Of a DNA stretch of 38,499 nt, positions 5,864 through 6,847 are shown one piece after another. The translations under genes and the position numbers were made by a program. Under the pieces are notes generated by a model. That model made no database searches. It was not told the DNA's origin and worked only from the letters and a program-made list of their open reading frames with translations. Within the stretch, counting starts at the first letter, position 1; each line of letters begins with the position of its first letter. The stretch lies in the UHGV virus genome UHGV-2201310, one strand, 5' to 3'. This DNA is from a virus.

Positions 5864-5876
5864 GATTTTCTCCTGA

Positions 5877-6383
5877 TTAAATTGCGTGAATAGCGTGACG
5901 AGGGAAGGGGAGAGTTACTGGTGCAAAGGGTATATCGTCGTCAAAATCCATCGGAGGTTCGTTGTGTTGTGCTGGTGATGATTGCTGCTGTGGTTTCTGT
6001 GATTGCCTGCTGGCTGCTTGTTGTTTGCTGTCGCCAATGCCGCCAAGCATTTGCATCACGCCATTAATTCCGACATGAACCTCGGTTGTGTAACGGTCTT
6101 GCCCTGACTGGTCTTTCCACTTTCTGGTTCTCAGCATTCCCTCGAAATAAATCTGATCACCTTTTTTCACATACTGCCCCACGACCTCAGCCAGTTTCCC
6201 GGATACAGCAACACGATGCCATTCAGTCAATTCCTTTTGCTCGCCAGTATTTTTATCTCGCCATTGTTCTGACGTGGCTATTGTCAGGTTAGCGAACGCT
6301 GTTCCTGATGGTGAGTATCGAACTTCCGGGTCTTGTCCTACCCGACCAAGGATAATCACCTTATTTATCCCGCGAGAACTCAT
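5877..6383 (-). CDS. ssb: single-stranded DNA-binding protein with C-terminal extension
   Basis: [23 protein letters not shown]... OB fold, Gly/Gln-rich linker, acidic [10 protein letters not shown] motif; ORF continues 15 codons ([15 protein letters not shown]) past the canonical terminal F. Confidence 0.9.
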
Positions 6384-6847
6384 TTGCTCCACCTCTTGCC
6401 AGTTTTTATGTTGCTTATAATTGATTGAGATACACCCATGTCTTTTGCTATCTTGTACTGACTCTCTTTTTCAGAGAGTCTTTTCCTAATTTCTATAACC
6501 TGCCACTCTGTTAATTTTGCACCATGATGAGCATGACCTTTCTTGGCTCCACGATGCCTTCCTTTTGCTATCTTGTCGTCCATGTTTTCTTGCGCGCTAC
6601 CTAAAAAGAGATGTTCAGGATTAACGCAGCATGGGTTATCGCATTTGTGGCAAACCATCTTCCCAGATGGAATGGGGGAGTGATAAAGCTCAAAAGCAAC
6701 CCGATGAGAAAGCATTGTTACGCCAAAGGCTACAAATTTTGTGTATCCTCCTTTGTTTTTTGAATAGGTAGACTCCCAGCAACCTGTTGTTTCATTAACT
6801 TTGTAGCTGGACTCGAATCTTTTAATAATTCCGTCCAAGTGAGACAT
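6380..6847 (-). CDS. HNH homing endonuclease
   Basis: 155 aa with [18 protein letters not shown] motif and basic C-terminal DNA-binding tail; sits between recombinase and ssb. Confidence 0.85.

Follow-up and report, generated by a model that had tools for sequence, protein, structure and literature searches.

The window analysed here is a 38,499-nucleotide (nt) stretch, read on one strand, of the virus genome UHGV-2201310, a lambdoid, P22/Sf6-like prophage whose minus strand carries, at 5877..6392, an open reading frame (ORF) for SSB, a protein that binds single-stranded DNA. The likely start of this ssb gene is the ATG at 6383, which overlaps the stop codon of an upstream HNH endonuclease gene as ATGA and gives a protein of 168 residues (MSSRGINK...HAIHAI); DNA that is 99% identical in E. 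coli E2348/69 is annotated by RefSeq as ssb, also of 168 residues. Residues 146-153 read DFDDDIPF, the acidic tip motif of bacterial SSB, and the reading frame then runs on for 15 further residues, here called the tail. An initial annotation made from the letters alone had described just such an ending, without naming the strand, and translation agrees with it to the nucleotide (stop at 5877-5879, extension at 5880-5924). It had also remarked that the ending is no single-base stop-loss, which is borne out by the codon following Phe153, a GCA at least two substitutions away from any stop.

All tested features of bacterial homotetrameric SSBs (OB-fold core, disordered linker, acidic tip) are present in the window SSB, with the exception of the terminal position of the tip, F153 being followed by 15 residues. 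The protein scores 166 bits against TIGR00621 (cutoff 54), and because that alignment halts at Phe153 the last 15 of the 168 residues lie outside the ssb family model. Searches with phmmer against SSBs in the PDB returned E<1e-55, with E=2e-57 to 1eqq. AlphaFold2 models the core with the strand and helix pattern of SSB (predicted local distance difference test score, pLDDT, 82-94 except in the first ten residues) and leaves residues 114-168 disordered and devoid of secondary structure, whether it is given an alignment of 37 or of 95 sequences. The tail has a pLDDT of ~32 with the smaller alignment and ~45-51 with the larger (linker ~32), and disorder of this kind is as expected of a linear motif. 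An open run of 15 codons after a lost stop has a chance of (61/64)^15, or ~0.49; since such a run is not in itself improbable, recurrence and conservation are the deciding question.

The ending recurs widely. Among 5,426 complete E. coli genomes, surveyed with a 90-nt tip-plus-tail query at a coverage of at least 80%, 297 contain the tip-plus-tail DNA, and ~108 further complete genomes contain the 45 tail nt only. The tail DNA is also found in 26 records of the phage collection: it terminates ssb in HK75, mEp235, mEpX2, epsilon34, g341c, NM-3, ECP1 and CP-1639, lies inside an annotated endonuclease gene in Sf6, Huey and CurroJimenez, ends an unannotated 159-residue HNH ORF in N7, and occupies a position without annotation in the IME10 records. 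The same search of the phage collection found no match to the tail DNA in P22. Two protein-cluster searches were seeded with the window SSB and with an SSB of the type found in integrative and conjugative elements (ICEs). With the former seed 111 of the best 120 clusters have a post-tip extension of 13-17 residues, among them SSBs of 65-73% identity from Klebsiella, Citrobacter, Enterobacter, Salmonella, Kluyvera, Pluralibacter and Phytobacter, and an SSB from a Caudoviricetes metagenome-assembled genome (MAG) is likewise among the extension-bearing clusters; with the latter seed 101 of the best 119 are extended, and the variants form a continuum. A sequencing or assembly error, or a stop-loss confined to one strain, is left with a negligible probability, since the identical ending is shared by hundreds of complete genomes that are independent of one another and by phage isolates that different groups sequenced, and the agreement of 297 E. 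coli genomes, 26 phage records and 111 of 120 clusters excludes an artefact. The alignment with homologues that the initial annotation had proposed thus finds the extension conserved, and its notion that the extension is a peculiarity of this prophage falls: the extension is old as well as common, occurring in lambdoid phages of many Enterobacterales genera and, in a related form, in ICE-type elements too.

Host chromosomes behave otherwise. When one genome per species was examined, 66 of 73 readable ssb genes end at ...PF and 7 are extended, and the neighbourhoods of 6 of those 7 were inspected and are all phage or ICE-like. The tailed ssb of Providencia follows a RecT gene and a PDDEXK nuclease gene, that of Mixta follows a gene for an AAA_24/Sak4-type ATPase, and that of Trabulsiella has an ICE-like neighbourhood, where Pfam confirmed a topoisomerase and a DUF3577 protein; for Scandinavium, a Pseudomonas-labelled contig and Chimaeribacter the corresponding ICE-like ORFs were assigned by eye. 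The lambdoid tailed SSBs adjoin annealases of the Rad52, RecT or Sak4 types. Going by these loci, the tip-plus-tail ending is typical of SSBs in lambdoid recombination modules, a related form exists in ICE-like contexts, and chromosomal ssb is without it. A 30-residue tip-plus-tail query against 1.84 billion representatives gave 13 matches and no independent family; the matches are nearly all SSB fragments or local chimeras (an Ea22-like protein joined to the ssb 3' end; a 51-residue ORF), and a search of PDB sequences with the tail gave no match. Two database proteins of 51 (P0209) and 118 residues (P0202) consist of a linker-like stretch, tip and tail with no recognisable OB fold, and could be either fragments or free-standing tip-plus-tail peptides.

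The tail peptide, 15-16 residues long, follows the pattern x-x-hydrophobic-[G/T]-[L/Y]-x-[F/V/I]-x-[R/K]-x-[A/T]-[I/L]-[Y/H]-A-[I/L]; over 84 distinct 15-mers the residues are G/T at position 4, Y/L at 5, F/V/I at 7, R/K at 9, A/T at 11, I/L at 12, Y/H at 13, A at 14 and I/L at 15. In a comparison restricted to tail-bearing proteins with OB domains below 85% identity, mean pairwise identity is 78% for the OB domain, 47% for the linker, 91.5% for the tip and 74.6% for the tail. Ratios of non-synonymous to synonymous change (pN/pS, Nei-Gojobori, seven diverse loci) are 0.21 for the OB domain, 0.21 for the tip and 0.45 for the tail. The tail DNA is nearly invariant across phages of E. coli, Salmonella and Klebsiella; the tails of Providencia, Mixta and the MAG differ from the window at many synonymous positions and keep the pattern. 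As judged from these comparisons, the extension is authentic, evolutionarily conserved and under selection. The initial annotation had named a common and functionally neutral extension as the outcome that would overturn its reading; common the extension is, and neutral is not what its conservation suggests, which is near that of the OB fold and far above that of the linker.

The last 45 nt of ssb behave moreover as a separable mosaic module, a history that the initial annotation had not taken up, and comparison of near relatives indicates that the tail is toggled among them by exchange at the conserved codons of the tip. The ssb gene of Sf6 and N7 (gp27, 157 residues) ends canonically at ...NFDDSDIPF, and in Sf6 it is followed by gp26, a separate 159-residue Cys-rich endonuclease gene that matches PHROG 2340 ('endonuclease') only, with no Pfam family, and has the tail at its own end. 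The last 42 nt, the stop codon and the abc2 ribosome-binding site of Sf6 gene 26 and of the N7 HNH gene are 100% identical to the window, and the GenBank record of Sf6 equates 14 contiguous amino acids of gp26 with 'E. coli SSB' and says no more. Across 80 IMG/VR loci, tailed ssb genes (166-178 residues) have abc2 next, either directly or after an intervening DnaQ-like exonuclease gene, and of the 8 tail-less ssb genes (152-153 residues) 7 have an HNH gene (155 or 159 residues) bearing the tail directly after them. The exception (L082, 2210-3300) has an ssb ending at DDEIPF, then a 165-residue ORF (MIENLSHNYLHE...) and then a divergent abc2.

The direction of this exchange can be read from the relatives of the HNH proteins, which elsewhere end soon after ...WHKHNKPIY with unrelated short residues. 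Because these relatives lack the tail and the PHROG 2340 profile does not cover the final 16 residues of the HNH protein, the tail belongs by origin to ssb; the arrangement of the alleles indicates that an endonuclease gene entered directly behind the IPF codon, its reading frame running on into the former ssb tail. The reverse history, a tail native to HNH that became fused to ssb by deletion, was rejected on the same two grounds and also because tails and SSBs diverge together at loci that have no HNH gene. What results is a presence/absence polymorphism of HNH genes at one precise site in ssb, between flanks that are otherwise homologous and with identical tail DNA on either gene, which is a feature of free-standing homing endonuclease cassettes. 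Apart from the L082 locus, exceptions are two close relatives, ~90% identical (P0008, P0011), in whose genes TGA stands right after IPF, with a hairpin and a divergent Abc2-like gene next and nothing left of the tail. In the tail-less relatives (L172/L174, 2960-3040) a GC-rich inverted repeat (GGAGGCGG...CGCCTCC) lies between the ssb stop and a divergent Abc2-like gene of 112 residues; it may be a terminator or a regulatory hairpin, and it is absent from the window.

The two HNH types at this site are ~47% identical overall and have their last ~45 residues in common, so that they may go back to one insertion whose 5' part was later replaced. Alleles with an HNH gene have the final ~9 codons of ssb recoded, 27 nt holding 8 substitutions compared with ~97% identity upstream, a pattern that could equally reflect a target made immune to cleavage or a mosaic join with a different ssb lineage. 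In an allele with the 155-residue HNH, the spacer that follows the canonical ssb stop (L058, 4455-4480, TTTTAATCATTGGGAGAAAATATG) closely resembles the post-tail spacer of the window (5864-5882, ATTTAATCAGGAGAAAATCATG); given this similarity a ribosome-binding junction is present twice, flanking the HNH gene, and the duplication may be the trace of a cassette insertion. Several chimeric database proteins span the same hot spot (P0134, P0131, P0199, P0144, P0173, P0180, P0183), joining an SSB N-terminus to an HNH C-terminus with tail, an Ea22-like N-terminus to the last 39 residues of ssb, or an HNH N-terminus to a DnaQ-like exonuclease C-terminus. Their existence suggests that neighbours in the module often undergo deletion or recombine with one another, and some of them may be artefacts of assembly or gene calling.

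A rival explanation is set at the level of DNA, in which the 45 nt and the tip codons are kept mainly as a recognition or homing site for HNH endonucleases and as recombination homology, the peptide being incidental. Two HNH types sitting exactly at the IPF/tail junction, recoding of the ssb tip as for a cleavage-immune allele, the near invariance of the tail DNA in E. coli, Salmonella and Klebsiella phages and the second HNH gene on the other side of ssb in the window all agree with it. However, in the Providencia, Mixta, MAG and ICE types the pattern of the peptide persists with diverged DNA and no HNH gene, the two HNH types may stand for one insertion, and no cleavage activity is known for them. 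Nor did the region yield a signal of another kind: the fold z-score of the tail DNA is +0.56, offering no RNA element, and a promoter and terminator scan found no site within the tail or the ssb-abc2 spacer. We therefore give this explanation a slim chance.

The features of the module are collected in Table 1. The early-left operon of the window runs, on the minus strand, from the annealase gene through the HNH_3 gene and ssb to the spacer and abc2, and its annealase-ssb-abc2 layout is common to the window, E2348/69 (where the ssb region lies within a prophage integrated beside ybhC), HK75 and Sf6, which fits a lambdoid Rec module with an SSB of the SSB-1 kind. HK75 and Sf6 are without the HNH_3 gene, and their annealase gene directly adjoins ssb. 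Since the window has this gene upstream of ssb and the HNH site lies downstream, endonuclease insertion sites flank ssb on both sides. The HNH_3 protein has a C-terminal helix-turn-helix and is unrelated to the HNH proteins of the downstream site. In a Klebsiella prophage (L165) a gene resembling that for DNA polymerase III theta (PF06440, 7461-7718) lies a few genes downstream of a tailed ssb, within one and the same early operon.

Table 1. Features of the ssb region in the window, in the direction of transcription (coordinates are those of the 38,499-nt stretch).
Feature	Coordinates	Strand	Evidence
Rad52/Rad22-family single-strand annealing protein, 235 residues	6848..7555	-	PF04098 E=5e-26
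HNH_3 endonuclease gene, 155 residues, between annealase gene and ssb	6380..6847	-	PF13392 E=1e-13
ssb coding sequence, 168 residues	5880..6383	-	PF00436 E=1.7e-36; TIGR00621 residues 4-153 only
OB-fold core (predicted DNA-binding and tetramerisation), residues 1-113	6045..6383	-	AlphaFold2; alignment to SSB structures 1eqq (E. coli) and 7f2n (Klebsiella)
Gln/Pro-rich disordered linker, residues 114-141	5961..6044	-	pLDDT ~30; 47% pairwise identity
Acidic tip motif, internal here, residues 142-153	5925..5960	-	91.5% identity; TIGR00621 ends at F153
15-codon extension (tail), residues 154-168	5880..5924	-	translation; cluster conservation; AlphaFold2 disorder
ssb TAA stop	5877..5879	-	sequence
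13-nt spacer with AGGAG ribosome-binding site for abc2	5864..5876	-	TCAGGAGAAAATC then ATG
abc2, anti-RecBCD, 98 residues	5567..5863	-	PF11043 Anti-RecBCD_p2 E=4e-61; related-record annotations

Several simpler readings of the tail were tried and set aside. It is not mere conserved sequence upstream of abc2, as epsilon34, mEp235 and many IMG/VR loci have a DnaQ-like exonuclease gene next, and there homology ends at the stop of the tailed ssb. A programmed frameshift or alternative termination that would restore a terminal Phe was rejected because the +1 frame reads ...IP-LHQ or ...IPF-HQ and then stops, never giving DDDIPF followed by a stop, and the -1 frame is open through the abc2 start with no stop nearby. 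Within the window tail the stretch PVTLPF presumably resembles the QLxLxL motif by which proteins bind the beta-clamp, a candidate dropped because the ICE-type variants (LGHGYGV...) do not keep PVTLPF. Docking of the tail on its own OB fold is unsupported by the AlphaFold2 monomers, in which the tail has a pLDDT of 32-51 and no secondary structure. A docking site for one cognate annealase is unlikely, given the association with Rad52, RecT and AAA_24/Sak4 types as well as ICE-like contexts, and given the tail-less SSB of Sf6. PVTLPF and AIYAIS occur in no paper of the searchable literature library, where a search for C-terminal extensions of SSB in prophages returned nothing relevant; the extension appears to be widespread, annotated as ordinary ssb, and undescribed and unexplained.

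What such an ending might do is suggested by how the canonical tip works. Partner proteins bind it through a hydrophobic pocket that takes the Phe side chain, a basic residue that meets its alpha-carboxyl group and a basic ridge that meets the Asp residues (PMC3159472). When green fluorescent protein (GFP) is placed after the C-terminus, SSB no longer binds ExoI and cannot serve as the sole SSB of the cell, and results with plasmid-expressed SSB-GFP are consistent with a dominant-negative effect (PMC7293020). The masking of the tip proposed by the initial annotation is plausible and agrees with both studies, extended by inference to a tail of 15 residues, and stands apart from the uniqueness that had been attached to it. 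With the tip no longer terminal, carboxylate-dependent docking of host partners should be lost, and by this analogy tailed SSBs probably cannot dock those partners in the usual way. The internal tip would abolish or strongly weaken docking of ExoI, RecQ, RecO, PriA, chi and others, leaving the SSB of the element to coat single-stranded DNA without any stimulation of ExoI or RecJ or recruitment of RecO, RecQ or PriA, an uncoupling that would be in keeping with the next gene of the module, which counters RecBCD.

Any extension could mask a tip, yet this one is conserved in sequence, so the tail probably has an activity of its own; its hydrophobic and basic residues would form a second short linear motif for docking or regulation. 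The loading of the HK620 annealase, which needs the last six residues of the HK620 SSB (PMC5928155), is an instance of an SSB end used in docking within a phage. Because the tail accompanies three unrelated annealase families and ICE-like contexts, a conserved host protein, or else SSB itself, is the more likely partner; a specific phage partner is less likely, since in Sf6 a nearly identical Rad52-type annealase works beside a tail-less SSB. A conserved tip-tail module that combines lost host docking with a second linear motif is, as an explanation of the whole, evenly poised in our estimation.

That combination must be tempered by several observations that weigh against it. The internal tip is very strongly conserved (91.5%), which is unexpected if it has simply been inactivated, and it may retain an activity, for example on the OB fold or once the protein is processed. 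Natural phages can do without the tail, as the ssb genes of Sf6, N7 and IME10 end canonically and those of P0008 and P0011 have no tail anywhere nearby. The pN/pS of the tail is about twice that of the OB fold. Finally, when the window is compared with the Klebsiella prophage (L165, 5001-5516), synonymous differences number 3 of 12.5 sites in the tail and 57.5 of 69.3, near saturation, in the OB domain. With so few synonymous changes the apparent conservation of the tail is in part recent horizontal exchange and not selection, and the 3' end of ssb has, on this comparison, a different and more recent history than the 5' part.

This history would also fit 15 codons that are a neutral scar, a passenger of recombination at the module boundary upstream of abc2 or the exonuclease gene, retained through its place in a junction that is exchanged horizontally and with no function as protein. 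The low synonymous divergence relative to the rest of ssb would then reflect recent spread, identical tail DNA does travel as a unit on two genes (ssb and HNH), close relatives without the tail are viable phages, and an open run of this length has the roughly one-in-two chance calculated above. A scar does not readily account for 84 distinct extensions from many genera that obey one position-specific pattern, for a tail identity of 75% against 47% in the adjacent linker, for a pN/pS below 1 with synonymous turnover in distant lineages, or for the persistence of the extension in ICE-type SSBs with entirely different neighbours, and we consider it unlikely.

The strong conservation of the internal tip keeps alive a different pair of explanations, in which the tail is regulatory: a C-terminal degron that keeps the SSB short-lived, or a pro-peptide that is clipped to expose DDDIPF. 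A tip conserved as in canonical SSBs fits one that is freed by processing, and the tail is disordered, with a small or hydrophobic end in all 84 variants. Its hydrophobic ends (...[RK]xA[IL][YH]A[IL]) loosely resemble ClpX- or FtsH-type C-terminal signals, such as the ...RRKKAI of MuA. Opposed to this are the looseness of that likeness, the fact that no truncated or processed forms are documented, and the conservation also of positions 4, 5 and 7, in the N-terminal half, which a simple C-terminal degron would not require; a regulatory tail of either sort seems improbable to us.

The C-terminal tip of SSB is a central interaction hub of bacterial genome maintenance, and the accepted rule is that it is terminal; here a large and conserved class of mobile-element SSBs breaks that rule. 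The pattern suggests that phages and ICEs have evolved a way either to separate their own single-stranded DNA from the host partner network or to rewire that network. A bolder proposal, which we regard as possible but on balance doubtful, is that mobile elements of Enterobacterales and Pseudomonas (lambdoid phages, phage-plasmid-like elements and ICEs) have a dedicated class of SSBs with capped tips that uncouple single-stranded DNA from the host interactome and also recruit a specific factor. If it were true, intermediates of recombination and transfer would be protected, the SOS response would be damped, and the cell would contain a second, orthogonal SSB hub that recruits through the motif [G/T]-[L/Y]-x-hydrophobic-x-[R/K]-x-A-[I/L]-[Y/H]-A-[I/L]. 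Tailed, tail-less and HNH-interrupted alleles in near-isogenic phages (HK75, mEp235, Sf6) constitute a natural experiment on these questions. The finding also bears on recombineering design, where compatibility of annealase and SSB depends on the SSB tail, and on annotation, which files tailed proteins as ordinary ssb, and it documents a precise hot spot at which endonuclease genes split the terminal motif of a gene from its extension.

Set beside known systems, the window SSB is by sequence and fold a bacterial-type SSB, and it shares with the chromosomal SSB of E. coli (PF00436/TIGR00621; 1EQQ, 4MZ9) the OB core, a disordered Gln/Pro-rich linker and an identical acidic motif. The chromosomal protein ends in Phe, whose free carboxylate belongs to the docking epitope, whereas the window SSB has 15 residues beyond it and a shorter linker (168 residues in total versus 178). 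Among natural proteins it is most closely related to the SSB-1 proteins (Sf6/ES18 type) of lambdoid Rec modules; according to a 2025 survey (PMC12315714) these had not been studied experimentally. Sf6 gp27/gp26 belongs to the same module of Rad52-type annealase, ssb and abc2, with near-identical annealase and Abc2 and with the same 14 residues encoded by identical DNA, but in Sf6 those residues end the inserted HNH gp26 and the SSB is canonical, while in the window they end the SSB. The SSB of HK620 (HkaK, 'SSB-2', found with Sak4), which that survey describes as no homologue of bacterial SSB (PMC12315714), provides through the hexapeptide that its cognate annealase requires a precedent for a private docking end; unlike the window SSB it ends in a free NDYPPF with no post-tip extension. 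The SSB of F-plasmid type, encoded by the leading-region ssb, is also a paralogue on a mobile element, and it too keeps a free terminal ...SDDIPF (for example P0236) with no extension. The closest functional analogy is the engineered SSB-GFP (Dubiel et al. 2020, PMC7293020), in which the tip is likewise internal, with residues after Phe177; that fusion is artificial and adds a bulky folded domain, whereas the window SSB carries a conserved, disordered peptide of 15 residues.

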